DNA of 64,000 nucleotides, taken from the IMG/VR virus record IMGVR_UViG_3300043466_003414. One strand, 5' to 3'. Under the pieces are notes generated by a model. The model saw nothing but the letters and a program-made list of their open reading frames with translations. It ran no database searches and was not told where the DNA came from. Source of the stretch: an uncultured virus (IMG/VR IMGVR_UViG_3300043466_003414) (taxonomy: Duplodnaviria; Heunggongvirae; Uroviricota; Caudoviricetes). Shown here piece by piece: positions 37,965-58,943 of this stretch (position 1 is its first letter; the number at the start of each line of letters is the position of its first letter). The position numbers and the translations under genes are program-made.

Positions 37965-38009
37965 AATAATAAATTTTTATAATTTTTAAATAATTTTTTT
38001 GAAACTCGA

Positions 38010-38245: not shown

Positions 38246-38309
38246 GTTATTTATAACTAAAAACTATTTGTTTAGTTTGTTTTATAGGAAAACCTTATTA
38301 TTATTGGCT

Positions 38310-38495
38310 TTATTGAGTTTTTTGTTCAATAATTTTTTTTTGAATTTTTTCTAATTTTATTTTTAATTCTTTTGTATCTTCATTTATAACACAAACAATA
38401 ACGTTGGTTAGCGAAGTAATAACCAGAATAAGACATAAAATTAATATGAAAAAATCTTGTTTTAGCTCTTTTTTCTTTACTTTATATTCCTCCAT
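38310..38495 (-). CDS. small membrane protein
   Basis: Central TM. Confidence 0.55.
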   Translation of the reverse strand: MEEYKVKKKELKQDFFILILCLILVITSLTNVIVCVINEDTKELKIKLEKIQKKIIEQKTQ

Positions 38496-38498
38496 GAC

Positions 38499-39317: not shown

Positions 39318-39344
39318 GATTATTTTCTAGGTTTTGTTATTTTT

Positions 39345-39488
39345 TCAACCATAACTTATTGTTTCGCTCTTTATATAAGCACGCCAAGTTTGTCTGGTTA
39401 TCCCTAAAAAATTTGAAACTTCTGAAACTTTTATTCTTCTTGACTTTAAAAAATCCTCTAAAGTCTTACCCATGTGTGTTTTATTCAT
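39345..39488 (-). CDS. 47-aa Cro/XRE-like HTH microprotein (not in the ORF track)
   Basis: MNKTHMGKTLEDFLKSRRIKVSEVSNFLGITRQTWRAYIKSETISYG. Confidence 0.55.
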   Translation of the reverse strand: MNKTHMGKTLEDFLKSRRIKVSEVSNFLGITRQTWRAYIKSETISYG

Positions 39489-39517
39489 GATAAATATGAT
39501 AAAAAATTATAATTTTA

Positions 39518-39859
39518 TTAATTTTTAGTAATTACACTATTAACCCATTCTAAATTTTTATTAATCTGATTAAAATCTTCTTCTGAAATTTTATTTTTTT
39601 CATTTTTATATTCTAAAAAAAATTTATGAGGTCTTTTAAAAAAAGGAGCATATAAAACATGTTTTATGTGTAATTCTTTATGTTCATTTAAAATTTTATA
39701 AATAATCTCATAATAATAAATATCTTTATCTAAACCTTTCTCGAAAGACATAATTAAGTTTCCTTTTTTCAACCATATTTTCTCAATAAAAAGACATGAA
39801 ATAATTTTTATTATTATAATCACGACAAATAATGCGAAAAATAAAAATAAATTTACCAT
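39518..39859 (-). CDS. membrane protein
   Basis: N-terminal TM; own promoter. Confidence 0.55.
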   Translation of the reverse strand: MVNLFLFFALFVVIIIIKIISCLFIEKIWLKKGNLIMSFEKGLDKDIYYYEIIYKILNEHKELHIKHVLYAPFFKRPHKFFLEYKNEKNKISEEDFNQINKNLEWVNSVITKN

Positions 39860-39864
39860 AATAA

Positions 39865-39936
39865 TTTTAGCACTTGCCCTTGCAATCGGTTTTAAAGTTC
39901 ATAGCAAATGTAATAATATTATTTTGGTTTTACAAA
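39865..39936 (-). promoter_or_regulatory. Bacteroidota promoter with TGAACTTTAAAAC leader (copy 4) plus a 28-bp leader repeat
   Basis: Minus strand TTTG 39933-39936, TACATTTG 39905-39912, leader 39889-39901; 39865-39892 recurs at 59543-59570. Confidence 0.8.
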
Positions 39937-39959
39937 ATTATTTTACCATTTTTTTTACA

Positions 39960-41027
39960 TTATTTTCTTGGTTTTCTTGGAGAAGTTGCTCTCTTTGTTG
40001 TTGTTCTTTTGGTTTTACGAACTGGTTTTTCTAAATCGCTATCTTTTGCAATTTTTTCAATACCAGCTAATATATCTGGGTCGCCAAATGTAGGCATATT
40101 ATCTGCTACTTTGCTTTCAGTTTTAAAACCTCCATTATCATTTAATATTGAATATACTCCGTTTTCAACTTCTTCTGGCTCAAAAAACTCAACTTGACTA
40201 TCAAGGTTCGTTGCTGGTTTTTTTCTTTTTGGTGGGGCTACATATTCTTGCTCTACTGCTTCGCTTATGTTATCCGTATATTCCGAACTTGAAGTAGTTT
40301 CTGCTTTTGGCTCGTATTTAACTTCTTGCTCTTGAGGTCTTGGTTTTGGTTGTTGCGGTTCACGAATAGCTAAAGTATTTTCTCTTAACGAATCTATAAT
40401 ACCATTTGCCGTTTTTCTTAACATAAAAGCTTGAACTCCTTTTGCACCAAAGTCGGTTGCAAAATAATACATAAGCAATTGCTCATCGGTCATACCAATA
40501 CCACGCTTTTTGAAAACTCTTTCTAAAGGTGGTTTTACTTTTTCTTTGAACTCATCGGAAACCGAAAACGCTTCTTTAATGCTATCGTTATATTCCCTTG
40601 CAAAGTCTTTTACTCCCAAACTTCCTCCTTCGGTTGGAATTTCTATATTCCCATCAATTTCGCCTTCAGCTATTAATCGGTCTAGTTTTCCTTCGGAAAT
40701 TTCGGGCAATTTACCTAACAAGCCACAACCCTTTTCGTAAAGGTCAAGGGTCATTTCTGCCATCATTTTAGCACCCATTGTTTTTTCCTTACCATCTAAT
40801 TCGCTATACGCTTGGTTAAATGGTCTTTCTGGCTCGGCTTCTCCGCCTTCTTCCTCAAAGTCGTTAAAACTAGGTGGTTGAAAAGTTGGTTCTTCTAAAT
40901 CCCCTAACACTTGTGCATCTGCAATATGGTGCTGGGTATATGAACGTTGTTTTACTGGTGCATCTAATGGAGAAAAATCGTCAATTATTTCTACCTCTGG
41001 TGCTGTATTAATTGTTTCTTGGCTCAT
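39960..41027 (-). CDS. acidic protein with a basic C-terminal tail (possible packaging/assembly factor)
   Basis: 355-aa ORF near the ATPase; RKTKRTTTKRATSPRKPRK tail. Confidence 0.6.
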   Translation of the reverse strand: MSQETINTAPEVEIIDDFSPLDAPVKQRSYTQHHIADAQVLGDLEEPTFQPPSFNDFEEEGGEAEPERPFNQAYSELDGKEKTMGAKMMAEMTLDLYEKGCGLLGKLPEISEGKLDRLIAEGEIDGNIEIPTEGGSLGVKDFAREYNDSIKEAFSVSDEFKEKVKPPLERVFKKRGIGMTDEQLLMYYFATDFGAKGVQAFMLRKTANGIIDSLRENTLAIREPQQPKPRPQEQEVKYEPKAETTSSSEYTDNISEAVEQEYVAPPKRKKPATNLDSQVEFFEPEEVENGVYSILNDNGGFKTESKVADNMPTFGDPDILAGIEKIAKDSDLEKPVRKTKRTTTKRATSPRKPRK

Positions 41028-42980: not shown

Positions 42981-43310
42981 TTAAGTTGTTTCGTATTTTT
43001 TACCTAATGCTTTTTTAAGGTTATATTTAACCTCGTCAATATCGCCACTCATATTTTCATATTCTTCGGCTGTTGGTTGTTCGTCTAATTTCTTTATAGC
43101 TTTTCTATAATAGAAAATTCCGTAAACCGACAAAGTAATTAGCAAGGCACTAATAACAATGTCTTTAATGTTCATTTTGCCACTTGTAATGCTTCCCATC
43201 GCTCCTCCTTCTTCATAACTAGTTTCTACTGTTGGAGCAGGTGTACTTGCTACTACTGGTGCTGGTGCTGGCGTACTTACTTCTGCTGGCGGTGTTGTTT
43301 GTCCTTCCAT
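42981..43310 (-). CDS. membrane protein with Pro/Thr-rich N-terminus and a YEEGG motif
   Basis: TSYEEGGAM precedes the TM helix. Confidence 0.7.
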   Translation of the reverse strand: MEGQTTPPAEVSTPAPAPVVASTPAPTVETSYEEGGAMGSITSGKMNIKDIVISALLITLSVYGIFYYRKAIKKLDEQPTAEEYENMSGDIDEVKYNLKKALGKKYETT

Positions 43311-43725: not shown

Positions 43726-43871
43726 TACGCTTTACCATTTAATCGTTTAATAGTGTAATAATTCACTATTGCTCCCAAAGTGAAAGACACTATACCAACT
43801 ACCACAAATATTGTTGACAAATGTTTGTGTATTTGTGTATTTTTTTCTTGTTTATTTTCTTGTTCTAACAT
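43725..43871 (-). CDS. 48-aa membrane microprotein (not in the ORF track)
   Basis: MLEQENKQEKNTQIHKHLSTIFVVVGIVSFTLGAIVNYYTIKRLNGKA. Confidence 0.65.
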   Translation of the reverse strand: MLEQENKQEKNTQIHKHLSTIFVVVGIVSFTLGAIVNYYTIKRLNGKA

Positions 43872-44532
43872 ATATGTATGCACCTCCTAATGCGATTAAT
43901 CCTATCCCTATAACTAATGCTAATTTGTTGCCACTAGACAAAGCGTATGGTTTGTTTAAAACATAAAAAGCATCTAGCCTATTTAACCACCCTTTTAAAA
44001 AAGTTGGTTGATTTAATGCTTTATATTTATTTGCTCTAAAATCGTTTAATTTTTCAAACAATTCTGGAGTTTGACCTTCATCATCTAATTTGTTGACAAA
44101 ATTTACCATTTCGGAAATTGTAGTAAGGTTTTTATTATAGTTTTTTTTGAAAAAACTATTTAGCCAACCTAATGTACCAGTACCTTTACTAACACTTCCT
44201 AAACCACTACCCCAAATCATTTCTACAAATGTATTTGCAATAGCTTGATTTTTTATTTTATCGCCTTGTATAACATCCCAAAAGCCAACTTTATATACCT
44301 TATACCAAACTGAATCTGGCATTTTTAAGAAATTATCGCAAGTAGCTGAATAACCGCCTTTAGAAGCTAATCCTTGAAAGGTTGCCCACGTAATACCTTT
44401 ATTGGTATGAATTGGATAACCATCCTTATTACCACAAGGAGAAGGATTTTTTGATGCAGAATCTTTTGGATTTGAACTTAAACCTCCTTCCGATTTTCTA
44501 ATATGGGGTACTAAATTTTTATAATCTGCCAT
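43852..44532 (-). CDS. GH108 lysozyme with C-terminal TM anchor
   Basis: SEGGLSSNPKD...TNKGIT...FLKGWLNRL, then TM-RTRK. Confidence 0.85.
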   Translation of the reverse strand: MADYKNLVPHIRKSEGGLSSNPKDSASKNPSPCGNKDGYPIHTNKGITWATFQGLASKGGYSATCDNFLKMPDSVWYKVYKVGFWDVIQGDKIKNQAIANTFVEMIWGSGLGSVSKGTGTLGWLNSFFKKNYNKNLTTISEMVNFVNKLDDEGQTPELFEKLNDFRANKYKALNQPTFLKGWLNRLDAFYVLNKPYALSSGNKLALVIGIGLIALGGAYIYVRTRK

Positions 44533-44826
44533 TTACCATAAAATTTTATCAGCATAATATCCATTTGAACCAACTATATGTCGGTCTTTTTCATGCCTTT
44601 CTTTATACAATTTTCTACGCTTGTTTGCGTACCCTTTTTCATAATATCCTTTTTTCTCTTTTGCAAGATATGTAGGATAATCATTCATTCCTCTAGCTCC
44701 AATACTGGCTATTTTTTTACCATTTTTAAAAACATCTATTTTTTTCAAAAGGTTGGTAGATGGTTTTATAACCACCCCCAACTCTTTTGCCTTTCTAAAA
44801 CTGTATGGTAAAATATTATATGCCAT
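44533..44826 (-). CDS. DUF5754-like basic protein
   Basis: IGARGMNDYPTY...RRKLYKERH...SNGYYADKILW; family recalled, not searched. Confidence 0.55.
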   Translation of the reverse strand: MAYNILPYSFRKAKELGVVIKPSTNLLKKIDVFKNGKKIASIGARGMNDYPTYLAKEKKGYYEKGYANKRRKLYKERHEKDRHIVGSNGYYADKILW

Positions 44827-44981
44827 TACATATTATCAATTATATCGTTAGCTTCGTCTAAAGATACTTTTGTAGCATCTTTTTTCATTTCCAAAAATCT
44901 TTGTAATGTAAAAAAAGATAATGCTGAAATTACCCCTAAACCAAGAACTACTACCGAATATTTTATAAATTTATTTTTCAT
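44826..44981 (-). CDS. 51-aa membrane microprotein (not in the ORF track)
   Basis: MKNKFIKYSVVVLGLGVISALSFFTLQRFLEMKKDATKVSLDEANDIIDNM. Confidence 0.7.
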   Translation of the reverse strand: MKNKFIKYSVVVLGLGVISALSFFTLQRFLEMKKDATKVSLDEANDIIDNM

Positions 44982-44983
44982 AA

Positions 44984-45529
44984 TTATTCTATTTTACCGA
45001 ATCCTAAAATATTTCTAACTCTAGTTACATTACGCTTCATTTTACCCAGATATTGTTGTCTTGTCGTTAAAGGGTCATAACCAGCATCATGAATCAATAA
45101 AATTTGTTCTTCTGGACTTTTAGCATTTAATCTTGCTTTTTCGTATCTTTTTGATTTTAGATTATCAATATATCCTTTTACTCCTTCTTCATAATTTTTC
45201 CATTTTGCCCATTTTCCAGTTGAAGATTGGTAAAAATCTTTATGAATATTTGAATTATATCTAACACCGCCAAAATTATTACCATTCATGAAAATATTGC
45301 TTCTTCCAAAAAAACTTTCGGTAATAGACATAGGTATTACAGCACTCAAGAATAAACCGCTACCCTTTACTTCTTTTGCAAAAAGTTTCCCATATTTGGC
45401 TATAAAATACTTAACTTTTGCATCAGGTTCTCCCATAGTAGAAAATGTACTATATGGCAATGAATCCATATACTTGATTAACTGTTCATTAGTTAATTTT
45501 TCTAATTCCGCTTTTGTTTTTACAGCCAT
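44984..45529 (-). CDS. GH73/glucosaminidase-like peptidoglycan hydrolase
   Basis: ITESFFGRS...NNFGGV...AGYDP. Confidence 0.75.
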   Translation of the reverse strand: MAVKTKAELEKLTNEQLIKYMDSLPYSTFSTMGEPDAKVKYFIAKYGKLFAKEVKGSGLFLSAVIPMSITESFFGRSNIFMNGNNFGGVRYNSNIHKDFYQSSTGKWAKWKNYEEGVKGYIDNLKSKRYEKARLNAKSPEEQILLIHDAGYDPLTTRQQYLGKMKRNVTRVRNILGFGKIE

Positions 45530-45537
45530 TTTATTTA

Positions 45538-45972
45538 TTATCTATTGTTCCTAAAATAATTTATTGCTCCCAAACTTCCAACAAGCAATAAACCACCGAA
45601 AATCCAACCAGCAATATTTGTAGAAGATTCTTTTTCCTCTTTAGGTTTTTCTTCCCCTTTCGGTTTTTCTTCCTCTTTCGGTTTTTCTTCTCCTTTTGGT
45701 TTTTCTTCTCCTTTTGGTTTTTCTTCTCCTGCTTTTGCTTTTGCTTCAATTAATGATTCTAAATCCTCAATTAAATCTTCCTTATAATCTTCGATATAAT
45801 CGACTATTTCTTGGTGCGATTCTTTTAATTCCTCATCATCTGGACTGGCATCTAAATCCTTTTTAGCTACCGCTAACCTAGTTTCAAGGTTATTCAATCC
45901 ATCTAATCTTTTAGCAATCGTTGGCGTTACTTTGTTTTCTAATTTTTCTAATAATTCTGCAATTTTATCCAT
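45538..45972 (-). CDS. coiled-coil protein with EEKPK repeats and C-terminal TM
   Basis: Five (G/E)EEKPK units; own TATATTTG promoter at 46004-46011. Confidence 0.7.
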   Translation of the reverse strand: MDKIAELLEKLENKVTPTIAKRLDGLNNLETRLAVAKKDLDASPDDEELKESHQEIVDYIEDYKEDLIEDLESLIEAKAKAGEEKPKGEEKPKGEEKPKEEEKPKGEEKPKEEKESSTNIAGWIFGGLLLVGSLGAINYFRNNR

Positions 45973-46037
45973 TTTTTGTTGTTTTTTTAAGTTAATTAAT
46001 TTACAAATATAATAAATTATTATTTACAATATATTTT

Positions 46038-46505
46038 TTAAAAAATTTTATATTCTAATACTATTCCATAACCAGATGGTTTGTTAGGCTGGATAAAGTA
46101 TTGACCGCCAACTTTTAATTTAGAATATTCAATTAGAACCCTACCATAAAGATAAGGGTCAACCATATCAAACCTTAAAGTTTCAACCCCTAAATAGCCA
46201 TGAATTTGTGGTTTTTTCCACCAGCCAATAGCTTTGTCTTGTATAGTAATTATTTGGTCTTTTTTACTAGATATACTATCTTTTATTTTGATTATTTCAA
46301 CTAGCTCATCGTTTTGCTCTTGTAGGTTTTTAATTTCCTCGTCTTTGAGTATCAATAGCTTTTTACAAATATCCCCTTGAACCAAATCCTTAACTACTTC
46401 CCTAGCGGTTTTTTCATTCAATACTATCTTTTTGATTGTATCGTTTTGAGAAAAACTCTTGAAGCTTACTAAAAGCAATAGTATCAATAATTTTAATCGT
46501 GTCAT
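46038..46505 (-). CDS. spanin-like outer component
   Basis: Signal peptide, coiled coil, C-terminal beta strands ending in Phe; overlaps the upstream gene. Confidence 0.5.
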   Translation of the reverse strand: MTRLKLLILLLLVSFKSFSQNDTIKKIVLNEKTAREVVKDLVQGDICKKLLILKDEEIKNLQEQNDELVEIIKIKDSISSKKDQIITIQDKAIGWWKKPQIHGYLGVETLRFDMVDPYLYGRVLIEYSKLKVGGQYFIQPNKPSGYGIVLEYKIF

Positions 46506-46764
46506 GTTGTAGTTGAATTAATGTTTTTTGTTTTTCTATTATAGTGTTTCTACCTAGTTGTAAGCTTTCAAACTTATCCCAATGTAGTTTTTCCTTTTGC
46601 TCAAGTGCTTCAATTTCTTTTTCAAGTCGTTGCTTCTCTTTTTTCAAGTCATTATTTTCTCCTATTCCGTAAAATAGGAATAGGATAAATAATGCGATTA
46701 GTAAGCTACCTAACCATTGTTGCTTTATGAAATTAACTATATGGAACATAACTTGTTTTTCCAC
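46414..46764 (-). CDS. spanin-like inner component
   Basis: N-terminal TM plus coiled coil, directly after the endolysin. Confidence 0.5.
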   Translation of the reverse strand: MEKQVMFHIVNFIKQQWLGSLLIALFILFLFYGIGENNDLKKEKQRLEKEIEALEQKEKLHWDKFESLQLGRNTIIEKQKTLIQLQHDTIKIIDTIAFSKLQEFFSKRYNQKDSIE

Positions 46765-47200
46765 CTTGCTTAATTGCTTTCAAAACTTGCTTGCGTTGTT
46801 TTCCAGTTGATTCATAAGAAACATGAACCCAGTCGGGATTAGCACTTGTTCCAAACTCAAAAATTAATTGGTCAAAAGACAAATTATTTTTTATATAGTC
46901 AAAAACTTGCTTATTGGTTATACCACTTGCACTACCATCCATGTCAATATCAATAGCTTCGCCAGTACAATGTTGAGAAGTTAAACTACCTCCAATTGCT
47001 TTATTTAGCTCTTTGCTTCTATAACCACTACTTATGTGTATTGGTACTTTAAAATGCTCTCTAATTGGCTCAAAAACCTTTTCGGCAAGCAACTTAAAGT
47101 TTTCTAAATGTTCTGGGGTTGGCATATTGCTAACACCCTTTCTTTTTGCTGTTTCGCTTCGTGTAACTTCGGCAAGCGATAAATGTTTACTCAATTGCAT
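46733..47200 (-). CDS. peptidase M15 endolysin
   Basis: SSGYRS..LN..IGGS..SQH..GEAID...WVHVSY. Confidence 0.88.
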   Translation of the reverse strand: MQLSKHLSLAEVTRSETAKRKGVSNMPTPEHLENFKLLAEKVFEPIREHFKVPIHISSGYRSKELNKAIGGSLTSQHCTGEAIDIDMDGSASGITNKQVFDYIKNNLSFDQLIFEFGTSANPDWVHVSYESTGKQRKQVLKAIKQGGKTSYVPYS

Positions 47201-48152: not shown

Positions 48153-51100
48153 TTATTTTTTTCTCATTTGCTCGTTAGCACGTTTCAATGCACTCGCCCA
48201 ACTTTCTCCTTCTTTACGAATTTGTTTAGCTAATACCATTGCACCACCTCGCTTGGTTGTACCACCACCAGACATTTTACTATCGTATTTTGCTTTTTGG
48301 CTACCAGCTATCTTATTACCTACTTCTTTTGCTTCGGCTTTGTCGTAAACCTTTCCATACTCTTTTTGGTATTTTGGTTCTACTTTTTTGCCTTCAAAAT
48401 TTTTGGCTATTGCGGTTGCTTTCTCTTTGAAAGTGGTTTTGCCACCGACTTCAAATTTAGAGAAAGGTTTAAATAAACCTCTTTCATCTATTTCTTTTTG
48501 AGTAGATGGTGCAACTTTTGATTTTGATTGGTGTTTGAATTTTAAAGGATTATATACCTCTAATTCTGTAATACTTACGTTACCATCTGCATCTGTTTTA
48601 ACCTCTCCTTTTTCTTCTGCAATTCTTACTATACCAACGCTTTTTGTTCTTTTATTGTAAACTAAATCATCTACTTTAAATTTTGGTTTTTTGGCTAATG
48701 AAACTTTATTTTTAAAACCATCCAAAGCACTTTTTTTAACCCAATATCCATTAGAAGGCTTTAGCTTATCTCCATCTTCCATTACAACTTCTTTAATATA
48801 TCTTTTAGCAAAATAAGTATGGTCGTTTTTCAATTTACCGCCACCATCATACAAGTTCACTCCATTAAGGACATCTTTAGACGAAAGCACTATTTCTTTA
48901 CCATCTTTAACAATAGTAATTGTTGAAATTTTATCTTTAGCTACATAATTAGTTGATTTTGATTTTGAACCACCAGAAAGAGAAATTATTTTTGGATTAG
49001 AAACATAATTTCTATATTTTGGGTCTTTAAATCTATCTTCTCTCCATGCTTTTTCGGTTTTTGTGATTTCTGGGTCATAGTAACCATTCCAAACTAAAAA
49101 CTCATTGAATAAATGCCAATTTTCATCGGTATAAAAGTCATAGTCCTCTTGGTCAAAACTACCTTTACCAACTTCCTCTTTTTGTAGCATTTCTTGAACA
49201 CCTTCAGCATAAGCTTTTAGCAATTTATCGCTATTTCTTATATCAGCACCAGAATTAGCACCAATTTTATCCCAAACATCCCCTTCTTTTTGTCCTAATT
49301 TTTCAAGGTATTCGTTTCTTTTTTTTCTAAACGATTTACCAACACCTCCACCAGTTGCATAACTATAAACTATAATTCTTTCTTTTGGAACGCTATATCT
49401 GTTTCCGTTTTTCTTTCCTCTTAAACGGTAGTTACCATTTTTGATTTCTTCAACCACAAAAACATCTAAATTATCTTTATGGTATTCCGAATCAAATTTT
49501 AACCCTACTTCTTGACCTTTGACAATTTCCCCACCTTTAGCAAATTGAACTTTTTGCTCATCGGTTAATACTTCAGTTGGTTTATTATCAACACCTCTAA
49601 CTGTACGCATTTGAAAAGCATCTATTGTACCACCATCTGCAAACATTTCGCCACTTGACATAGCACCAGTTTCTCCAACAAGTCCAGTATAAGAAATTCC
49701 TAAATCTCTACCTAGTGGAGTTTCTGGATTTCCAATAATTGTACCACCATCGGCATATCCATACCCTCGTCTTTTTGGCTTGTCTTTTGCATAACGAACT
49801 TCATAGTCTTGACCATGATTTACAAATCTTCTTTCTGTAGTTCTTCCGCCTTTGTCAAAAGGTAATGGCGGTTCAGCACCTCTATAACCATTTGCTAAAT
49901 TAACGTAAACAATATCGCCAGTTCTAGTTTTTACTTTTTGTACCCCACCAGACATGGTTTTGATAATTTGGTCGCCTTGTTTTAATCCATGATTACCTAG
50001 TGAACCACCTTCTGCATAAATACCAGCTTGAAAATCTCCAAAGTTAGGGTCTGTTAAATAACCATCTACAAGTGAGCCACCTTGTTCAAAAATTCCAGCA
50101 CTTGCTCCTTCTCCTAAATAATAGTTTACAAATTGTTGTTCAGCACCAGCTGGTAAACCAGTTGAGCCACCATCCATAAACATTTCGCCACTTGACATTG
50201 CACCAGTTTCTCCAACAAGTCCAGTATAGTGCATATCCAAACCTCTTGCAAGTGGAGTTTCGGGAGTTCCGATAATTGCACCACCATCGGCATATTTTAA
50301 ATACTGTTTACCAACAAGTCCACTCAACTTCGTTGCTTTACCAATAGTCATAACTTCATTAGTTTCTCCATCAATTTTTGGCAACAATGATTTTAGTTTT
50401 TCTGCTTTTGCTTTTGTGGTTGGTTTTGACATTACAAATCCCCCACCTTTTTCGCTTTTAGCAATAACTACATATCCACCACCAGCATAACCACCATCGG
50501 CTAAATAAATTTTATCGTCAAAACTAGGAGCAAGTCTATCAGTTCTATTATCACGATTTTCGTAATATACTCTACCTCCTTCAGATTCTCCATATTGGTT
50601 TTTCCAACCTTTTTTAGATATTCTTCTACCTTTCGGTAAAGCTTCAATTTTAGAATCTTTTTTTACTGAAGTTCCAGACAAGCCTTCTAATTCTTTTCTA
50701 CGCTTAATGAAAGCCAATAACTTATCGGTTTCGCTTTTCATTTTTTTAGTAGTATCTTCCTTTTCGGTTTCCATTACTTTTTTAGCACGAGCTTTAGCAT
50801 CTTCCCAACTTTCATCGGCTTTACGAATTTCTTTTGCTATTGAAAAAATGGTTCTTTTACCACCAGCTTCTTTTTTAGCTTTTTTTGGTTTTTTGGTTTC
50901 ACTTTTTGGCTCTTTTTTTACAACCTCTTTTTTGGCTTTAGGCTCTTGCTTTTTTGATTCTCCCTTAATTGCTTGAGGATTGGTAGCTTTTAGTTTTGTA
51001 ATAATATTATCTAATGCACTATCAACCTTATCCAATGCTTTTTGGTCTGTAATTGTAAAATCTTTGGTAGCTGTCTTAATTTTACCAAGAATTTCTTTTT

Positions 51101-51155
51101 GATTTTCGCTTAATTGACTTTGGTCAATGCTTTCAAATTTTTGTTTTATACTCAT
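48153..51155 (-). CDS. 1000-aa modular protein punctuated by about 13 [FYLM]xxGG motifs (putative virion-core polyprotein)
   Basis: LADGG, YADGG x2, FMDGG, FEQGG, YAEGG, FDKGG, FADGG, FAKGG, YATGG, YDGGG, FEVGG, MSGGG. Confidence 0.7.
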   Translation of the reverse strand: MSIKQKFESIDQSQLSENQKEILGKIKTATKDFTITDQKALDKVDSALDNIITKLKATNPQAIKGESKKQEPKAKKEVVKKEPKSETKKPKKAKKEAGGKRTIFSIAKEIRKADESWEDAKARAKKVMETEKEDTTKKMKSETDKLLAFIKRRKELEGLSGTSVKKDSKIEALPKGRRISKKGWKNQYGESEGGRVYYENRDNRTDRLAPSFDDKIYLADGGYAGGGYVVIAKSEKGGGFVMSKPTTKAKAEKLKSLLPKIDGETNEVMTIGKATKLSGLVGKQYLKYADGGAIIGTPETPLARGLDMHYTGLVGETGAMSSGEMFMDGGSTGLPAGAEQQFVNYYLGEGASAGIFEQGGSLVDGYLTDPNFGDFQAGIYAEGGSLGNHGLKQGDQIIKTMSGGVQKVKTRTGDIVYVNLANGYRGAEPPLPFDKGGRTTERRFVNHGQDYEVRYAKDKPKRRGYGYADGGTIIGNPETPLGRDLGISYTGLVGETGAMSSGEMFADGGTIDAFQMRTVRGVDNKPTEVLTDEQKVQFAKGGEIVKGQEVGLKFDSEYHKDNLDVFVVEEIKNGNYRLRGKKNGNRYSVPKERIIVYSYATGGGVGKSFRKKRNEYLEKLGQKEGDVWDKIGANSGADIRNSDKLLKAYAEGVQEMLQKEEVGKGSFDQEDYDFYTDENWHLFNEFLVWNGYYDPEITKTEKAWREDRFKDPKYRNYVSNPKIISLSGGSKSKSTNYVAKDKISTITIVKDGKEIVLSSKDVLNGVNLYDGGGKLKNDHTYFAKRYIKEVVMEDGDKLKPSNGYWVKKSALDGFKNKVSLAKKPKFKVDDLVYNKRTKSVGIVRIAEEKGEVKTDADGNVSITELEVYNPLKFKHQSKSKVAPSTQKEIDERGLFKPFSKFEVGGKTTFKEKATAIAKNFEGKKVEPKYQKEYGKVYDKAEAKEVGNKIAGSQKAKYDSKMSGGGTTKRGGAMVLAKQIRKEGESWASALKRANEQMRKK

Positions 51156-51167
51156 GATTTTTCTTTT

Positions 51168-52061
51168 TTAAAAAGTGTCGTTTATTTGTTCTAAAAAGTC
51201 ATCTGAAAAAACATCGTCTAATTCGTCTAAAAACGATAGGTCTGCTTCTTCTTCAGTCTTAATTGGTTCTACTATTTTTTGTTCTATTTTTTTGACTTTT
51301 TTACCAGTTTCTAATTTGTTGTTTATAATATCATTAACGATATTCATAAACTCTCTGGTTTTGTCATACAAATTTTCGTCAACTTCCCTAATTTTTTGTA
51401 TTTCGCTACCATTTGTTTCTAAAATAGTGTCTATAAAAACGTTTTTAGTAGCTTTTAACGACATATTTTTTTGATTGTTAACCTTTGTTATGTAAAGTGC
51501 TATTTCTCTTTCTGTTGGTCTTTTTTCAATAACCAAAATATCATCTTTAAAATCGTTTGCATCTACTAAAGGAAACATTATTTCACTATCATATTTTCCG
51601 CTTTGAAAATTATCATTAATTTTTTCATTAATTTGATAATCGGTTAATTTTCCTTGAAATAAAGATTTGTAGTCGTCTGCGATTTTACTTGGATTCAACA
51701 ATAATGGAGTGGGAATATTCCATTGTGCATAGGTATTTACTATAAATCCTAAAACATCATAAGTAAGTCCAGCATAATCTACTATTTCTCCAACGTGTAA
51801 TTCTGTATCAAATCTTTGTAAAATACCTCCATCTCTAGCAATATTTTCTATTATCCTATCTTCGCTCAAAATAAAAAATGGTCTTGTACCTTTAAATTGA
51901 GTTATATCTTTAAAAGTAAAGGCTTCTATTAAAGCACCAGTATTTATTTTTTGCGAAGAAACATCTTTATAGTCCATGCACAAATACAATTTTTTATAGT
52001 CAGAAATTTTCTTTAAGACTATATAATTTGAATTTTGCGGTATAATTCTTTCTAAATTCAT
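51168..52061 (-). CDS. hypothetical protein with acidic DLSFLDELD tail
   Basis: Operonic ORF. Confidence 0.65.
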   Translation of the reverse strand: MNLERIIPQNSNYIVLKKISDYKKLYLCMDYKDVSSQKINTGALIEAFTFKDITQFKGTRPFFILSEDRIIENIARDGGILQRFDTELHVGEIVDYAGLTYDVLGFIVNTYAQWNIPTPLLLNPSKIADDYKSLFQGKLTDYQINEKINDNFQSGKYDSEIMFPLVDANDFKDDILVIEKRPTEREIALYITKVNNQKNMSLKATKNVFIDTILETNGSEIQKIREVDENLYDKTREFMNIVNDIINNKLETGKKVKKIEQKIVEPIKTEEEADLSFLDELDDVFSDDFLEQINDTF

Positions 52062-52063
52062 AT

Positions 52064-53650
52064 TTAAGGTATTAATTCGTTTAATATAGCTAGATTTTTG
52101 GCTCTATCCTCTCTAACCTTATCTTGTTCCTCTTTTGTGTCCAATTGAATTTGAACTCTTAATTGATTATCATAATCTTTTTGAGATATTTTACCACTAT
52201 CTAACTCCTCTTTCAACTTACTTGGCGTTTTACTTTGTATTTCGCTTGTAGTAGAATAAACATTAGTCAAAATGTTTTGTAAATAGTTTTTAATCTCATA
52301 ATCAGACTTATTTTTAGACTTCAAACGTTTAATAATTTCTTGCATTATTATTCTTGGTGTTTTACTCAAATTAAGCTGTATGTAATCCATGTTTGAATAA
52401 AAACCATCTATAATTCTTTCCTCAATGCTTGCTTCATTTATTTCCTCATTAGGGTTGCTTTCAACTCCTCCATAAATCATTAATCTTTTATCAACAACTT
52501 GACTTGGAAATTCTCCAGTTTTTATTTTGTAATCTACAACATTTCTTATGCTTGGTAAAACAACCTCTTTAAAATCTTTATAATAACTTTGAGAAGTGTC
52601 TGGTCTTACATTATTAGAATTAATCAAACTAAAATTATGTCCGACTGAACCATTAAACAAATGGTATCTAAAAAATCTTGGGTCTGCCGAAAAAACAGCA
52701 AGTTTATTTACATCGGTTGTTTCTCCATAATCTTTTACCTTGAAAGCTAAAGAAATATTTTCTTGAGTAGCATTTTGTCTTTGATTATAAACAGCAAAAA
52801 TTCTTACTCTAACACCACTTTTTTCTAGCAATCTACCTAAAATAATACTTGGAATTGCTCTAATTAGCATTTGTTCTGGGTCAAAATTAGCATTACCCCC
52901 AATTGGAATATATAAATCAACATAAGGAGCAACACCACCGCCTTTTTTCTCTCTAAATGCGTAAACTTTTTTATTTGTAGAGGTAAAACGTAGCCTATTA
53001 CCCTTGCACTCGTTTACTATTTTACCATTATCATCGTATGGTAAAAATAATTTAGAGTTTTCGTCATATTTTATTTCTAAAAAAGGACAAGATTCAACCA
53101 TTTTAGTTGTACCCTCTTGTCGTCTTTGAACTTCATACTCCTCATCTTCTAACAGATAATAAAAAAAGTCTTTCCCATATTCTTTTTTAAGGAACACATT
53201 TTCTGCTTTTATAAGCTTTTTTTCATGAAATGAATAAAATTCAACTGGTCTAATTAAGCCTTTTGATGCTTGAGAAAACGAAAATACACCAATTGGTTTA
53301 TCGGTAAATTTTATTCTTGCTGGTTTGCTATCTTTACCTAAATCAAGCTTGGCATTAATCTCTGAAAAAACTCCTTCAAATTCATTAATTAAGTCTTGGT
53401 CTATAAAAGACCCTAACATATTTACATCGAATTGTTCGGCTACACTTAAATTAGAACTTGAATTATATCCACCCCAATTGTAAGGTTTATTCCTCGCTTT
53501 TGTGGTATTTGGCTCTCCAGAATTAATAGCTCTACTTTCTGAAAAATAAATACCTAAATTATTTTTCAAAGCAAGGTCTATCCCTTCCCTTATAAATTCA
53601 TAAGGGTCAAGTCCAAATTTTATATAATTTTTTAAATAACTAAAAGCCAT
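52064..53650 (-). CDS. vWA-like partner of the MoxR ATPase
   Basis: YVDLYIPIGGNA...LLEKSGVRVRIFAV...VKDYGE...DPRFFR; adjacent to the AAA+ gene. Confidence 0.55.
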   Translation of the reverse strand: MAFSYLKNYIKFGLDPYEFIREGIDLALKNNLGIYFSESRAINSGEPNTTKARNKPYNWGGYNSSSNLSVAEQFDVNMLGSFIDQDLINEFEGVFSEINAKLDLGKDSKPARIKFTDKPIGVFSFSQASKGLIRPVEFYSFHEKKLIKAENVFLKKEYGKDFFYYLLEDEEYEVQRRQEGTTKMVESCPFLEIKYDENSKLFLPYDDNGKIVNECKGNRLRFTSTNKKVYAFREKKGGGVAPYVDLYIPIGGNANFDPEQMLIRAIPSIILGRLLEKSGVRVRIFAVYNQRQNATQENISLAFKVKDYGETTDVNKLAVFSADPRFFRYHLFNGSVGHNFSLINSNNVRPDTSQSYYKDFKEVVLPSIRNVVDYKIKTGEFPSQVVDKRLMIYGGVESNPNEEINEASIEERIIDGFYSNMDYIQLNLSKTPRIIMQEIIKRLKSKNKSDYEIKNYLQNILTNVYSTTSEIQSKTPSKLKEELDSGKISQKDYDNQLRVQIQLDTKEEQDKVREDRAKNLAILNELIP

Positions 53651-55017
53651 TATTTGATTTTGTCTTTAGTAGTTTGCTCAAATTGTTTAATTAGCATTTC
53701 TGCTTCTTTTTTATCAGTATCAGTCGTTAAATCTGCAAGCGATAATTTGTTTTTTTGGTCGATTAAATCGTAAAATTCATTAGTATTTACTTCTGAATTT
53801 AAAACTGAACGTTGTTGCTCGGTAAATAAATCTAAAAATGTTTTTACAGCAATTTGTAAAGTTTTAGGTTGAGAAATTTTGTTAGAACCTTGCATTTCGT
53901 TTAATCTATAAGCAATATATGTATCACGCATAGAAACCATTAACCTTTGAGAAACAAATGCTCTACCGCTATAATTATTTTTTTCAATAGCTGTTCTTAA
54001 CTTGAATAAAAAGTTAAATATAAATGTAAAAGAAGTTATTTCATCTCCTACTTTTATGTTAGACATGATATTGTCTAATTCGTATTGTGGGTCGATAATT
54101 AACTCGTATGTACTACCAGCAAATCGGTCTTGCAAAGACAAATCTTGCTTGAAGTTAGCTTCATAGTTTACATCAGCTTCATTCAACAAAGAGTTACCAG
54201 TTGCTATAACAAATATGTTTTTCTTTGAAATAACTTGACCTCTACCATTTGTAATTGTAGGCATTATTTCTCTACCACTTTCACTTCTTTCAATTGGGTC
54301 TTTTATTTTTGACAAACCATCATTTAAAACCCCTGCTGTATTTGGGTCTAACTTTGGCAACTCATCTAGCAACAATAAAGCACCAGAATAAGGTTTTCCA
54401 GTATTTGCATTTATTTCATTAGCATCCCATAAATTACCAAAAGCATAAGTTAATCTACCCTCTTGATAACCCTCAATTGTTTGTCCACCGACAATATCTA
54501 ATGGAGAAGTAAATTGGTTACAATTCAAAGTAACTAATTTATAGTTCAAAGCTTTTGCTATTTGACCAGCTATAAAGGTTTTTCCAGTACCAGCACCACC
54601 ATATAAATAAACATTGTTACCAGCTTCAAAGTCAGATAAAACTATGTCAAAAATCTTTCTTTTTTTACCATCAGAAGTTTTAACTTTTACATTTTGCCAG
54701 TTTACGATTTGAACAGTTTGTGTTTTTCCAATTAAGTCTAAAATACTTGAATCCAAGTTCTTTTTACCTATTTTAAGGGTCTTAAACCTATCAGTAAGTA
54801 TTTCTTCTACTTTTTGTTTATCAACTCCAGCATTTGCAAGTTTTTCAATTGATTTGTTAAACTCTTTTACCGCAAACAATATATCATTATCTACACCTTG
54901 ACTTTCATCTTCGGTTTCAAGTGCTAATATTTTGTCAAGTTGCATTTGTGCATCTGCTTTTATATCCGCTTCAATGTTCGGATTATTAATAATTTCTAAT
55001 AATTGTTCTTTTTTCAT
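53650..55017 (-). CDS. MoxR/CbbQ-type AAA+ ATPase
   Basis: GGAGTGKT, LLLDE, VIATGN, DLSLQDRF, SQR. Confidence 0.85.
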   Translation of the reverse strand: MKKEQLLEIINNPNIEADIKADAQMQLDKILALETEDESQGVDNDILFAVKEFNKSIEKLANAGVDKQKVEEILTDRFKTLKIGKKNLDSSILDLIGKTQTVQIVNWQNVKVKTSDGKKRKIFDIVLSDFEAGNNVYLYGGAGTGKTFIAGQIAKALNYKLVTLNCNQFTSPLDIVGGQTIEGYQEGRLTYAFGNLWDANEINANTGKPYSGALLLLDELPKLDPNTAGVLNDGLSKIKDPIERSESGREIMPTITNGRGQVISKKNIFVIATGNSLLNEADVNYEANFKQDLSLQDRFAGSTYELIIDPQYELDNIMSNIKVGDEITSFTFIFNFLFKLRTAIEKNNYSGRAFVSQRLMVSMRDTYIAYRLNEMQGSNKISQPKTLQIAVKTFLDLFTEQQRSVLNSEVNTNEFYDLIDQKNKLSLADLTTDTDKKEAEMLIKQFEQTTKDKIK

Positions 55018-55018
55018 T

Positions 55019-56047
55019 TTATATGTTTTGTAATTCAGTTATTAAGTTTGTAGCTAATATGCTTTTTTTATCGTTTAATGAAACTTCTTTTTCAATTCCT
55101 ATTCTATCGGACAAATCTTCAATTTCGTTTTTACCTAGTAAAAACACAAAATCACGCACAAAGTCTGGAGTTGGAAATCTTCTTTTTAATTCTAAATCAT
55201 CTACTTTTAATTTTTCTTTTAAAGCACTTACGACTGGCTTGTACTCTTTCTCTGCAAATTCATTTTGCATATTGTCTAAAAACCCCATGTCGTTTTGCTC
55301 TGGTTGTTTTTCTTTGTCTATTTCATCTTTTAATCCCTTATCATTTCGATTTTTAGTAAAGTCATTATCAACTTTGCCTTCTTCTACTTTTTTTAAGAAA
55401 TCTTCTAAATCAATAGCTTCGTCATTAGATTGACCTTTCGTGTCTTTGTTGTCAATTTGGTTATCTAGTTGGTCGATAAAATCTTGAATATCTTTTGAAC
55501 TCATTTTTCCTTCTGCACCTTGACCTTCGCCACCTTGCTCATCGCCACCTTGCTTATCGCCACCTTGTTCATCTCCACCCTCTTGACCTTCGCCACCTTG
55601 CTCATCTCCACCTTGTTCCTCTTTAGCTTTTTCTTCTTCTTCTTTAGCTTTTTCTTTTTCTTTTTCAAGCTCCTCTTTTAAAGTTTCAAGCAACAATTCG
55701 TTGAATTTTTTTGCTAATTCTTCGTAATGAAAATTGAATTTATTTACAGCATCCGAAAGACCTACATTTTTATAATCTTGAGCTATGTTTGTAAAATCTT
55801 CTCCGTTTTCGTAATTATAAACCCTACCCATGATTACATATCTTTCACTATTTTTAGCATAAAATAAAGCAATAGTGAATTTTAAATTAACTTCTTCTTT
55901 TAAGTCGGTAATTTTAATAGTATCTCCACCCTCGTTTAAATCAAATGAAGAATAGTTAAAGTTTTTATCTGGAAACAAAGGCAATAACCTTAATTCTTTT
56001 ATTTTTTTTTCTATGTCCATATCTTTATAATTTTCCCCCTTGTTCAA
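55019..56047 (-). CDS. acidic protein with EQGG repeats
   Basis: EEQGGDEQGGEGQEGGDEQGGDKQGGDEQGGEGQG linker. Confidence 0.65.
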   Translation of the reverse strand: MNKGENYKDMDIEKKIKELRLLPLFPDKNFNYSSFDLNEGGDTIKITDLKEEVNLKFTIALFYAKNSERYVIMGRVYNYENGEDFTNIAQDYKNVGLSDAVNKFNFHYEELAKKFNELLLETLKEELEKEKEKAKEEEEKAKEEQGGDEQGGEGQEGGDEQGGDKQGGDEQGGEGQGAEGKMSSKDIQDFIDQLDNQIDNKDTKGQSNDEAIDLEDFLKKVEEGKVDNDFTKNRNDKGLKDEIDKEKQPEQNDMGFLDNMQNEFAEKEYKPVVSALKEKLKVDDLELKRRFPTPDFVRDFVFLLGKNEIEDLSDRIGIEKEVSLNDKKSILATNLITELQNI

Positions 56048-58943
56048 ATCTTGAATCGGTAATCAAAGCATTAAACTCTGTTGCTGTTGTAAACTTAATT
56101 TGGTTACTATCAAAAGCACAAAACGACAATGAAGCACCATCTAACCCAGTACCTACTTTATCTGGATGGTATTCGTAAAAAATATAGCCATCATAAGTAG
56201 TTGCCATTTTAACATACTCGGTAAAGCTTTGCCAATTTCTAATAATCATCCACGAATAAACCAATGTGTCTTGAGCCAAGTTGTTAAACAATCTAAAATT
56301 AGTCCAAAAGTCAAAATCCCCTATATTATAGTTTATTTGTAAAAACATAAGAAAATCGCTTACTGGTCTTTTTTCAACTCCAAATCTTGAGAAGTCAATT
56401 GGATTTTTTATATCCAAGAAGCATCTATAAAGATATTCGCCTTTATTTGGGTTTAAAGCTTTTAAAAGGTTTGAATCTTTTGCCGAAACATCTCCTCTCC
56501 CTTTTGACCATTGCTCTGCAAACCATTGAGAGAAATCTCTATTTTTTGCAAAATAATGTGCATTGTTTGTTTTATATGTTTTCCATTCAGTAAACAATAC
56601 GTTAGTACCATGATAAACTGGCATAGGTTCTTTTGTTTCTGGGTCAATAACTTTTGAAACACCACTAAAGTCGCCAATTTCATTAGCCAATCTCCAATCT
56701 CCAAAAAACGAACTAAAATATGGACTTCTTACATTTACCCATTCTTCATCGGTTAATTTTGTCGGCAAACCATTTGGAGCTAACAAATCTTTTGATGGAG
56801 TAAACTCGGCATTTATATTGCCCCATTTCAAAGCATAAGCACTTTCTAACCTATCTTTTAGTGGTAAAAACTCTAATTCTTTTTCATTGGCTATTCTTAA
56901 TTTTTCAATTAAGTTATTAATATCCCTTTGGTAAAAACCTATTTCTTCATTTGAAAGTCTTGGTTTTTTAAAATTCAACTCTTTTGTTAAATCGGCAATT
57001 CTTAAAGTCAAATATTTTTTAGTTGCTTCAAAATCAATTCTTACTTCTTCTTTTATTGGCTTTGGTTGTGGTGCTGGAGAAGGTTCTTGATTAAAAAAAT
57101 CAGTTAATTCTTTAACAGACATTTTTTCTGGAACATTCTCTTTCCCACGAAATAATGCAGATAAATCAACATTAGGGAAATAGTTAACAAAAAACCTATC
57201 AAGAATACCTAAAGGAACTTCGTTTATGTTGAAGTGTCTTATATCTTCATTTTCTTTTTGCAGATAAAAAGAATCATTAGCTATGTAAGTTCCTCCTATT
57301 CTCTCTAAATCTATTGTAACTTTAACATCTCTATCTGAAAAAACTTTTAAATATTCAAAAAAAGCAGAAACATAAAAAAAAGAATCCTCTGCTATTAAAT
57401 TATTGTTTTCTACAATTGAAAATCTAATACGAATAGCTTTTTCTTTTGTTGGCTCTGGTTGTGGTTGAGGTTTTGGTGTTGCTTTACCTCCTAACCAATT
57501 AGTGAAATCTAAATTATTTCTTCTAATAGTAGAACCATATCTTCTTTCTAATTGTTTGTAGAAATCAGAACTTTTACCAGTCAAAGGATTAAAATTCAAA
57601 ACAGTATTCTTGGTATTTTTAAATTGAATAGCTAATCTTGTTGGTGTTATTTTTTCTCCATTTTTTAAAACATAAAAATAGAAATAACCGCCAAATTTAT
57701 TTTTGTCAATAAATACACTTTGTAAATCAGAAAGAAATTCTTTGTAAGAATTATATTCTGTTTTAGGCATACTGCCAGAATAAGTTGCACTTGAGCTGTC
57801 TAATCTTATAGCATCTACTTGATTAGTAGTTGCACCGCCATCGTCAAATTTTTCTACCGCTTCGTCTAAAAAGTCTAAATTGCCACCATCGGCATACAAA
57901 CCAGTTTCAGCACCAACTTGACCATCAACACCTACATCCATTAAATCATTATAATTATTCAAATCTCTTGATGGATGGTCGCCTTTTTTAGATTCTTTTG
58001 ATAAATCTAAATTGCCCCCTCTTTTTAATCCTACTTTTTTCAAAATAGTATAGTAATTTGGATTTTCGTACAAATGGTCTTTTACGATTTTCATTTGTTC
58101 TCTTTTTGATGAGGTATGTTCGATTTCAGCTTTTAATCCTAATTTAACTTGATTATTAATTTCAGACAAAGTTACATTATGCTTATCAGCAATTTGTTTT
58201 AATGTCATTCCTTTAGATAAATGACCACCAGTATTCATTTTCAATTCATTTGAATCTACTTTTGATGCTTTACCGCCCATTACTGCACTATAAACCCTTG
58301 CCATTGCCCATTGTTCTTTTGACTTAACGTTTGGTCTTACACTTTCTGGATTTGTTTTATATGCACCTATACCTTTATTGTAAATTTGTTGCAATCCTTT
58401 TATAGAAATTCCAGTATCTTTTGAAATTTGTTCTAAATCATGCGAAGTACCTTTAGGGTATTTGAATTTTTTGTTATATTTATCTTTATAAGTTACTACG
58501 CCACCTTTTTTATATTCACGCTCACTACCACAATCGTTCATGCTTTGCATAATTTCATAATCGGTCATGGTTTTACCACCATAATTGTAGGAGCTACCAT
58601 TGAAATAAATTTCTCCACCATTCTCTAATGAAACACCACCCCCTTTTTCGTTGATTTTAGACAATATTTCTCTATTGGTAAGCATTTGTCCTTCAAACTC
58701 TCTTTTTGTTTGGTCTGCAACGGCTGGTGCGGTAATAATTACTTCTCCACCTTGAACCTCAATTGGTTGTCCAGTAGATTTATTAATACCTTTTATTCCG
58801 CCCTCTTTATGTAATTTGCCTACAAAGTAGCCACCTTGAGTTCCTTTATCGTGAATTATTGTTTGACCTTCTCTTTTACCAACTAAAACTCCCCCTGCTG
58901 GAGATTTTTTAGCTTTTTGTTCAGTCATTATATCTTTTTTCAT
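56025..58943 (-). CDS. 972-aa polyvalent protein with GG-delimited modules and a C-terminal ART-PolyVal-like domain
   Basis: GKLHKEGGI..EVQGGE module; DUF5824-like (GIGAYKT..RP..QWAMARV); DUF5661-like (EHT..DHLYENPNYY); APNG..FFGDW..SKVID..EPMPVYHGT; ends FEQGGKL. Confidence 0.7.
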   Translation of the reverse strand: MKKDIMTEQKAKKSPAGGVLVGKREGQTIIHDKGTQGGYFVGKLHKEGGIKGINKSTGQPIEVQGGEVIITAPAVADQTKREFEGQMLTNREILSKINEKGGGVSLENGGEIYFNGSSYNYGGKTMTDYEIMQSMNDCGSEREYKKGGVVTYKDKYNKKFKYPKGTSHDLEQISKDTGISIKGLQQIYNKGIGAYKTNPESVRPNVKSKEQWAMARVYSAVMGGKASKVDSNELKMNTGGHLSKGMTLKQIADKHNVTLSEINNQVKLGLKAEIEHTSSKREQMKIVKDHLYENPNYYTILKKVGLKRGGNLDLSKESKKGDHPSRDLNNYNDLMDVGVDGQVGAETGLYADGGNLDFLDEAVEKFDDGGATTNQVDAIRLDSSSATYSGSMPKTEYNSYKEFLSDLQSVFIDKNKFGGYFYFYVLKNGEKITPTRLAIQFKNTKNTVLNFNPLTGKSSDFYKQLERRYGSTIRRNNLDFTNWLGGKATPKPQPQPEPTKEKAIRIRFSIVENNNLIAEDSFFYVSAFFEYLKVFSDRDVKVTIDLERIGGTYIANDSFYLQKENEDIRHFNINEVPLGILDRFFVNYFPNVDLSALFRGKENVPEKMSVKELTDFFNQEPSPAPQPKPIKEEVRIDFEATKKYLTLRIADLTKELNFKKPRLSNEEIGFYQRDINNLIEKLRIANEKELEFLPLKDRLESAYALKWGNINAEFTPSKDLLAPNGLPTKLTDEEWVNVRSPYFSSFFGDWRLANEIGDFSGVSKVIDPETKEPMPVYHGTNVLFTEWKTYKTNNAHYFAKNRDFSQWFAEQWSKGRGDVSAKDSNLLKALNPNKGEYLYRCFLDIKNPIDFSRFGVEKRPVSDFLMFLQINYNIGDFDFWTNFRLFNNLAQDTLVYSWMIIRNWQSFTEYVKMATTYDGYIFYEYHPDKVGTGLDGASLSFCAFDSNQIKFTTATEFNALITDSRFEQGGKL

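Follow-up and report, generated by a model that had tools for sequence, protein, structure and literature searches.

Two polyvalent proteins at the locus

A short motif built around Gly-Gly recurs in two large proteins, P0001 and P0002, of an uncultured virus (IMG/VR record IMGVR_UViG_3300043466_003414), of which a stretch of 64,000 nucleotides, hereafter the window, was analysed. The window has a G+C content of 30%, and nearly all of its genes from 8.9 kb to 64 kb are read leftward, with the P0001 and P0002 genes lying in the same long leftward run as the particle genes. Judged from its gene content, the virus is apparently tailless and comes from a very abundant uncultured clade with genomes of 60-130 kb. 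The two proteins and their parts are as follows.

48153..51155, minus strand: P0001, a polyvalent-type protein of 1000 amino acids (translated open reading frame, ORF) with 15 [FYLM]xxGG motifs
50166..50294, minus strand: first copy of a 43-residue unit with the motif at both borders (YADGG...MFMDGG), P0001 residues 288-330
49629..49757, minus strand: second copy of this unit, P0001 residues 467-509, identical to the first at 35 of 43 residues
56025..58943, minus strand: P0002, a polyvalent protein of 972 amino acids (translated ORF) with 8 motifs
58260..58571, minus strand: DUF5824 domain, P0002 residues 125-228 (Pfam, E 7e-14)
58038..58202, minus strand: DUF5661 domain, P0002 residues 248-302 (Pfam, E 9e-11)
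56085..56633, minus strand: ART-PolyVal domain, P0002 residues 771-953 (Pfam, E 3e-9, 38.1 bits against a cut-off of 31.2)
56028..56048, minus strand: C-terminal FEQGGKL of P0002, directly before the stop codon (from the translation)

The polyvalent class is recognised by several unrelated effector domains together with a signature domain above its curated cut-off, and P0002 has both. A first-pass annotation, made from the letters of the window alone, had recognised DUF5824, DUF5661 and ART modules in this protein and a duplicated unit in P0001, all of which are borne out by the Pfam matches and the alignment of the two 43-residue copies; its label of "core proteins" does not suit the domain content, which is instead that of polyvalent effector proteins. 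P0001 matches no Pfam or PHROGs family, nor do its pieces match any Pfam family at E up to 5, and because it has no Pfam match of its own its placement in the class comes solely from its mosaic homologues. Among 8000 candidates scored, 583 such homologues of 550-1750 amino acids were recovered at E up to 0.001, some of them carrying a RelA_SpoT, DUF2958 or LPD domain (LPD11), and Pfam found Zeta_toxin, GNAT, DUF3140 and LPD11 in a set of 29 related large proteins (LPD11 at 107.5 bits in one relative). The exact P0001 sequence is encoded on a contig of 73,582 nucleotides. These sequence comparisons place P0001 and P0002 among the phage-type polyvalent (multi-effector) proteins, in which small modules are strung together and can be swapped independently of one another.

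Small shuffled modules fill P0001 between a conserved N-terminal head (residues 1-220) and a tail that is likewise conserved at the C-terminus. Its tail, SWxDAxKRA...KK, is the C-terminal end of many other related polyvalent proteins, most of which start with one of a few conserved heads, and may be the actual loading or DNA-binding signal. A helix-like element, GG..(I/L)AK.IRK..ESW..A..RA, was noticed twice in P0001, after residue 98 (50766..50864) and at the extreme C-terminus (48156..48248).

A Gly-Gly heptapeptide is enriched and conserved

Fifteen and eight copies of [FYLM]xxGG were found in P0001 and P0002, for which about 13 and 7 had been claimed, and all of the instances listed earlier (LENGG, YKKGG, MNTGG, LKRGG, YADGG, FDDGG and FEQGG) are present. 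When each protein was shuffled 5000 times, only 2.0 (P0001) and 1.26 (P0002) copies were expected and none of the shuffles reached either count, upholding the claimed enrichment over background in both large proteins. Twelve sites remain in P0001 if glycine is barred from the x positions.

Across 2187 Gly-Gly sites in 120 homologous proteins, sites that are mutually related and not independent, the consensus is [FY]-[AE]-[DEKN]-G-G-x-[VLI]. Phenylalanine and tyrosine together make up 51% at position -3, followed by alanine (29%) or glutamate at -2 and by aspartate, glutamate, lysine or asparagine at -1; after the Gly-Gly, small residues come first, and valine, leucine and isoleucine together reach 45% at +3, two places past the Gly-Gly. 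Motif density in the homologues is about 12 per 1000 amino acids, and motif number rises with protein length, with 33 copies in one relative of 2781 amino acids. The predicted conservation in homologues was also observed, with aligned motif sites kept in 11 of 11 cases at 72% identity, 9 of 10 at 63%, 7 of 9 at 58% and 4 of 10 at 37%. At 72% identity, 23 of 24 motif glycines were retained, compared with 72 of 91 other glycines.

The other 99 ORFs of the window contain 5 copies of a strictly defined motif ([FY], then two polar residues and GG), where 2.25 would be expected (p ~0.08), and 27 of the loose form against 13.7, a surplus consisting mostly of L-x-x-G-G within membrane helices. Of the claim that the motif also tags other proteins, the part that stands concerns the families of the proteins encoded at 3661 and 42981, described below; a significant proteome-wide excess does not.

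Synonymous codons differ between copies of the motif, as in TATGCCGATGGTGGT, TTTGAACAAGGTGGC and TTAAAAAGAGGGGGC, which argues that it is selected as a peptide and not as DNA. The first motif glycine is encoded by GGT in 16 of 20 copies, compared with 78 of 154 other glycine codons, and GGTGG recurs; this bias is probably minor.

The heptapeptide marks module borders

Domain borders were taken from 28 Pfam domain matches representing 9 families in 15 proteins. Only two motifs fell inside these domains, compared with 21 expected from the overall density, both in the first part of DUF5824 matches, in agreement with the earlier proposal that the motif lies between rather than inside domains. The median distance from a domain end to the next motif is 12 residues (19 or fewer in 21 of 27 cases), and that from a motif to the start of the following domain is 44 amino acids. 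Similarly, when P0001 was compared with its homologues by BLAST, 270 of 397 internal ends of similarity blocks lay within 10 residues of a motif against 29% expected, a figure to be read with the caveat that the conserved motif itself anchors block ends. The commonest start of a block is the aromatic residue (62 cases), and blocks most often stop at +1 and +3.

In P0002, two motifs exactly enclose the DUF5824 module (residues 149-234). In other viruses, at 30 of 37 loci examined, DUF5824 occurs as a stand-alone ORF of 90-112 amino acids, the limits of which match those of the P0002 module and which has no motif. The median distance between motifs is 56 amino acids, with 30-39 the commonest class. 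G001, the closest relative, shares most genes with the window at >90% identity but has a reshuffled polyvalent region. We show that each module is followed by the heptapeptide [FY]-[AE]-x-G-G-x-[VLI], which is selected at the protein level and signals junctions and ends; this descriptive core, a protein-level junction and end signal of polyvalent proteins, is well supported.

Protein ends, doublets and other carriers

Related proteins whose genes have an intact 3' end number 68 after removal of redundancy, and in 14 of these at most 7 residues follow the Gly-Gly of a final motif. Five of the motif-ending proteins have a common ART-type C-terminal domain and all keep R-F-x-x-G-G-x-[VIL] at only 23-65% identity, and two further ones (L049 and G001_886) have different C-terminal domains. 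Outside the polyvalent proteins, the window encodes two carriers.

3661..4644, plus strand: lysine-rich basic protein of 327 amino acids without a Pfam or PHROGs family, ending in FEQGGEIR (4618..4641)
42981..43310, minus strand: membrane protein of 109 amino acids with a variable Pro/Ala/Thr-rich leader, a conserved YEEGGAM (43197..43217) and a membrane helix

The translations confirm what had been reported of the FEQGGKL and FEQGGEIR ends and of YEEGG before the membrane helix of the 42981 protein. The homologue of the 3661 protein in G002 ends in FEKGGKIY, and the 42981 family keeps [YFM]E[ED]GG[AV][MF] behind a hypervariable leader. Three split genes (L005, L099 and L118) begin a few residues before a motif and thereby keep it with the downstream module.

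Motifs also occur as stereotyped doublets about 10 residues apart, YADGGFMN[ND]VYA[DK]GG, in many relatives. Scanning viral contigs with one instance of the doublet pattern gave 40 loci, of which the motif-rich ones mostly carry the marker genes of the clade. One locus, L159 (ORF 2..10408, minus strand), encodes a tape-measure-type protein of 3469 amino acids (PhageMin_Tail, E 6.5e-26) with 14 motifs including doublets, and another, L135, has an ORF of 1762 amino acids with 7 motifs; no clade marker genes were found in the available DNA around either. By eye, the C-terminal GGHV.G.D.IPAMLTPGEFVV of the L159 protein resembles the N-terminal GG...IEVQGGEVII module of P0002.

Neighbouring genes and the virus

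Four genes separate P0001 from P0002, and two genes further along the leftward run give the context of the virus particle.

51168..56047, minus strand: four genes encoding an acidic-tailed protein of 297 amino acids, a DUF7192 protein, a MoxR-type AAA ATPase and an acidic protein of 342 amino acids
37263..37964, minus strand: P0123, a probable shell protein of 233 amino acids with a strand-like sequence; no other protein of the clade is as conserved (given as context, outside the motif system)
38499..39317, minus strand: HerA/FtsK-type ATPase of 272 amino acids, the probable genome-packaging enzyme (context)

Of 49 related loci, 30 have a MoxR and 31 a DUF7192 gene (52064..55017 in the window) near the polyvalent genes, but both are missing from the two closest relatives; the two products could act together as chaperone or loader of the polyvalent proteins. 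The acidic protein of 342 amino acids (55019..56047) contains a run of (E/D/K)QGG repeats, EEQGGDEQGGEGQEGGDEQGGDKQGGDEQGG, which lack the aromatic residue and are therefore not the junction motif.

P0123 is 75-99% identical in relatives and forms >2000 clusters. Its N-terminal arm holds FANADG and FRNAGG, a pattern ([FY]xN[AF]xG) that begins like the junction motif (F-A-N/D). The 355-residue neighbour of the packaging ATPase (39960..41027) was considered as a shell protein and set aside, its family being acidic with a basic tail and helical, not rich in strands, in reading, with no lead from PDB or the Protein Atlas. Pfam and PHROGs gave no tailed-phage head genes in the window except for a weak match of the 272-residue ATPase to a large-terminase PHROG (E 3.6e-6), and Terminase_6N, Phage_capsid and Phage_portal, the three Pfam models searched there, were absent from all five related records that are at least 92% complete. 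G002 (70,173 nucleotides, rated complete) is collinear with the window, and its 14.6 kb beyond the window hold small early genes only. The window (24466..41027 and beyond) encodes many small glycine-rich hydrophobic or membrane proteins. A P0001 profile found 49 loci; an open frame of at least 400 amino acids containing 5 motifs or more is present in 47 of them, and clade markers are present in 46.

As to the host, a CarboxypepD_reg-like domain in the window (Pfam) is a weak pointer to Bacteroidota. One 132-kb contig binned with a Sediminibacterium metagenome-assembled genome was hit among species genomes; both of its ends look viral (HNH/NUMOD4, RNase_T; 31% G+C), and we take it not as evidence of integration but as a weak host hint towards Bacteroidota. 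Elsewhere in the window, a collagen-repeat protein of 1504 amino acids adjoins sulfotransferase, APS-kinase-like, cytidylyltransferase-like and two-domain glycosyltransferase genes (15629..24450), which suggests a decorated (sulfated or glycosylated) fibre. Four cell-wall hydrolase genes, unusually many for one virus (two GH108-like, one glucosaminidase and one M15 peptidase), are accompanied by two PG_binding_1 proteins (27300..27947, 43852..47200).

Candidate enzymes

Two window genes had been put forward as candidates for an enzyme that would cut at the motif.

32924..33712, minus strand: P0122, a candidate zinc metallopeptidase of 262 amino acids with HEFSH (33134..33148), clade-wide and inside the particle-gene block
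11091..11585, minus strand: P0124, 164 amino acids, with a His...Asn-Cys-Glu-His pattern, a C-terminal membrane helix and a weak PPPDE/C97 match

P0122 has turned out to be a good suggestion. Its family comprises 657 cluster representatives at E up to 0.001, nearly all of them stand-alone proteins of about 260 amino acids; of the top 150, all 137 that are full-length contain HExxH, and H189, E190, H193, E203 and D207 are invariant in 70 diverse members, giving a clade-wide HExxH...E...D pattern. In the same 70 members, sub-threshold Pfam matches were to PhageMetallopep (14, best E 0.0044), SprT-like (6), M48 (5), M56 (4) and M78 (2). By these signatures P0122 is the best virus-encoded candidate enzyme. 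P0124 proved a poor one, and its role as a Gly-Gly protease is unlikely: its PPPDE match (E 1.9e-4) lies below the cut-off, homologues turned up in G001 and G002, the two closest relatives, and nowhere else, and it had no PDB match.

Pfam matches up to E 0.01 on the 102 ORFs of the window included no clan CE protease (adenain/Ulp1/pS273R; C5, C48, C57, C63) and no Peptidase_C39. PDB sequence searches with P0001, P0002, P0122, P0123, the ATPase and a 63-residue unit bearing two motifs returned no usable match; the Protein Atlas, queried with two proteins, returned unnamed viral clusters only; and NCBIfam, run on 16 proteins, gave weak P-loop matches (MoxR ATPase), one match far below cut-off (the 28138 protein) and nothing else. 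Among 50,697 records of isolated phages there was no homologue of P0001, P0122, P0123 or the doublet-bearing segment, and therefore no published virion proteome is applicable.

Cutting, docking or joining

The heptapeptide is probably the site at which the strings of modules are cut or docked. One conserved heptapeptide per junction between unrelated modules is the hallmark of viral polyprotein cutting sites, an arrangement for which docking tags or neutral linkers offer no precedent known to us. We tentatively favour the reading that the motif is a protease cutting site that frees the modules, to which we would give somewhat less than an even chance. On this reading a trans-acting factor, most likely a protease, would recognise the motif and cut at or just after the Gly-Gly or before the hydrophobic residue two places on, and the modules would be freed at particle maturation or once they have entered the host along with the DNA. 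Among viral proteins, the stand-alone HExxH protein P0122 would be the best candidate for this enzyme, and a host protease the alternative. Cutting fits because of the clade-wide zincin-like gene and because polyvalent proteins have previously been proposed to be processed into functional units by zincin (MPTase) domains (Iyer et al. 2017, PMC5512222).

That paper, as far as its available text goes, ascribes polyvalent proteins to phages and conjugative elements and gives P1 and N4, both tailed, as phage examples; the words "glycine", "linker" and "diglycine" are absent from this text, as is any cleavage-site motif, and the junction motif is not described there (PMC5512222). P0001 and P0002 resemble the proteins described there in having many unrelated effector domains per polypeptide and a gene run in common with particle genes. 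They differ in that no zincin lies inside them (frequent, though not obligatory, in that class), in that a stand-alone HExxH gene is instead found among the particle genes, and in that the virus is apparently tailless.

Motif-directed processing of head and ejection proteins is carried out by the prohead proteases of T4 and phiKZ, and T4 Alt, an ADP-ribosyltransferase, is a packaged and processed protein. In SPN3US, multiple motif-directed cutting by the prohead protease is documented for gp245 (PMC10052503), and the head and ejection proteins of that phage, like the polyvalent proteins here, have many copies of a short motif per long protein, the SPN3US regions being cut into several pieces. 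Unlike our heptapeptide, however, the T4, phiKZ and SPN3US motifs end in glutamate and are cut by serine proteases belonging to HK97-type heads; neither a protease of this kind nor a portal or HK97 capsid gene was detected here.

The adenovirus protease (AVP) is a further precedent for multiple motif-directed cutting of virion proteins, with the sites (M/I/L)XGG↓X and (M/I/L)XGX↓G (PMC4246237). The likeness lies in a recurrent short Gly-Gly motif with an upstream hydrophobic residue in a virus that is not of HK97 type, and in the cutting of internal virion proteins, established for AVP and proposed here. In contrast to the AVP sites, the conserved residue here is phenylalanine or tyrosine at P5, one place further upstream, with alanine or glutamate at P4, and a hydrophobic residue is preferred two places past the Gly-Gly. 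With the aromatic residue one place further from the Gly-Gly and no clan CE protease found in the window, the analogy with adenain and pS273R drawn in the first-pass annotation does not hold in these specifics. Double-glycine leaders cut by C39 peptidases also differ, since the motifs here are internal or C-terminal, with the exception of the 42981 family, and no C39 match was found.

Several observations weigh against cutting. In the 14 of 68 proteins that end in the motif, a cut would remove almost nothing; the stereotypy of the doublets resembles one structural or binding unit more than two cutting sites; and many inter-motif units are just 30-39 amino acids long. Pfam found no peptidase or zincin (MPTase) domain in any of the 29 related polyvalent proteins or in P0001 and P0002, and P0122 itself has no Pfam match above cut-off and no PDB relative by sequence. 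The motif and its doublets also occur in the tape-measure-type protein of L159, and because that locus lacks clade marker genes, a clade-specific protease cannot be the sole partner. Finally, in the one isolate protein checked, a polyvalent protein of 3633 amino acids from a Bacteroides phage, 7 motifs were counted where 3.0 would be expected; with so little enrichment there, the idea that the motif is a general property of polyvalent proteins is unsupported.

An uncut docking or loading tag, that is, a heptapeptide bound by a particle component such as the inner face of the shell, a membrane protein or the packaging vertex, is a rival reading that we consider rather unlikely. Each module would have brought its own C-terminal tag at gene fusion, and with many tags on a chain the cargo would be loaded tightly and in order. 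Known parallels are the cargo-loading peptides of encapsulins and the capsid-targeting sequence of T4, short terminal stretches with much glycine and many hydrophobic residues by which unrelated cargo is directed into a protein shell. In line with tagging, the motif lies nearer to the domain before it than to the domain after it, the proteins that end in it do so with the complete motif including its hydrophobic residue (GGKL*, GGKI*, GGKVN*), and such ends follow at least four unrelated kinds of sequence, namely the ART, L049 and G001_886 C-terminal domains and the basic protein of 327 amino acids; one copy stands in the 42981 membrane protein family, and the stereotyped doublets would suit two-point binding. 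However, encapsulin and T4 targeting peptides occur once per cargo and address an HK97-fold shell, whereas the motif here occurs once per module, up to 33 times per chain, with no HK97 shell protein detected. A density of 12 per 1000 amino acids is far beyond the need of an address label, copy number tracks the number of modules, the conserved heads and tails could already act as loading signals, and the presence of the motif in a tape-measure protein of the tailed-phage kind means that no single shell type can be the receptor.

We also consider it rather unlikely that the motif is an intrinsic structural joint, a compact linker needing no trans-acting factor, through which unrelated small modules can be connected and the chain threaded out of the particle. 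In such a joint the aromatic residue would cap the preceding module, the Gly-Gly would act as a hinge and the hydrophobic residue would start the next module, a doublet being a mini hairpin. The exact position of the motif at junctions speaks for it, as do the split genes that keep the motif with the downstream module and the conservation of the residues between the doublet halves (FMN[ND]V), and the occurrence in differing ejected proteins, including the tape-measure type, is more easily explained by a physical role than by a shared enzyme. Yet the motif is kept at the extreme C-terminus, with no domain after it, in ART-ending proteins of 23-30% identity, linkers between unrelated domains do not normally converge on one consensus of seven residues, and stand-alone DUF5824 proteins fold without it. 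A DNA-level joint, in which the motif would be the translated trace of a short sequence used in cassette shuffling, accords with module shuffling breaking at the motif and with the GGT preference and recurrent GGTGG, but is very unlikely and was rejected, because synonymous codons, including those of the second glycine and the other motif residues, vary freely, at most about 5 bases are common to the copies, and conservative amino-acid replacements are tolerated, the pattern of protein-level selection.

Implications

Polyvalent proteins are thought to be the first weapons delivered into the cell by a phage or plasmid. To our knowledge, how their 10-30 unrelated modules are converted into working units has so far been a matter of conjecture, involving a zincin domain and no known cutting sites. 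Both polyvalent proteins and motif-directed virion processing are already known; the literature searched, with supplements outside the search, holds no description of the motif, of its one-per-junction layout or of the setting in a clade of tailless type. If the motif is a cutting site, as we tentatively favour, it would be the cleavage code for the processing step proposed by Iyer et al. 2017. One heptapeptide per junction makes the question of processing concretely and cheaply testable. Whatever the mechanism, the motif is a practical parser that splits giant hypothetical proteins into candidate effector modules of 30-90 residues. The carrier is of interest in itself: its clade has a probable shell protein with >2000 clusters, lacks any cultured member, shows no hallmark genes of tailed phages and has polyvalent proteins.

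The most specific form of the cutting reading, which we regard as possible but doubtful, is that a very abundant tailless, membrane-lined clade (60-130 kb, probably infecting Bacteroidota) loads polyproteins of dozens of tiny anti-host modules, which are cut by a clade-wide stand-alone zinc protease at [FY]-A-x-G-G. If true, polyvalent proteins would have the cleavage code so far missing for them, and bacterial viruses a counterpart, using a different enzyme, to the Gly-Gly-X core processing of adenovirus and African swine fever virus.

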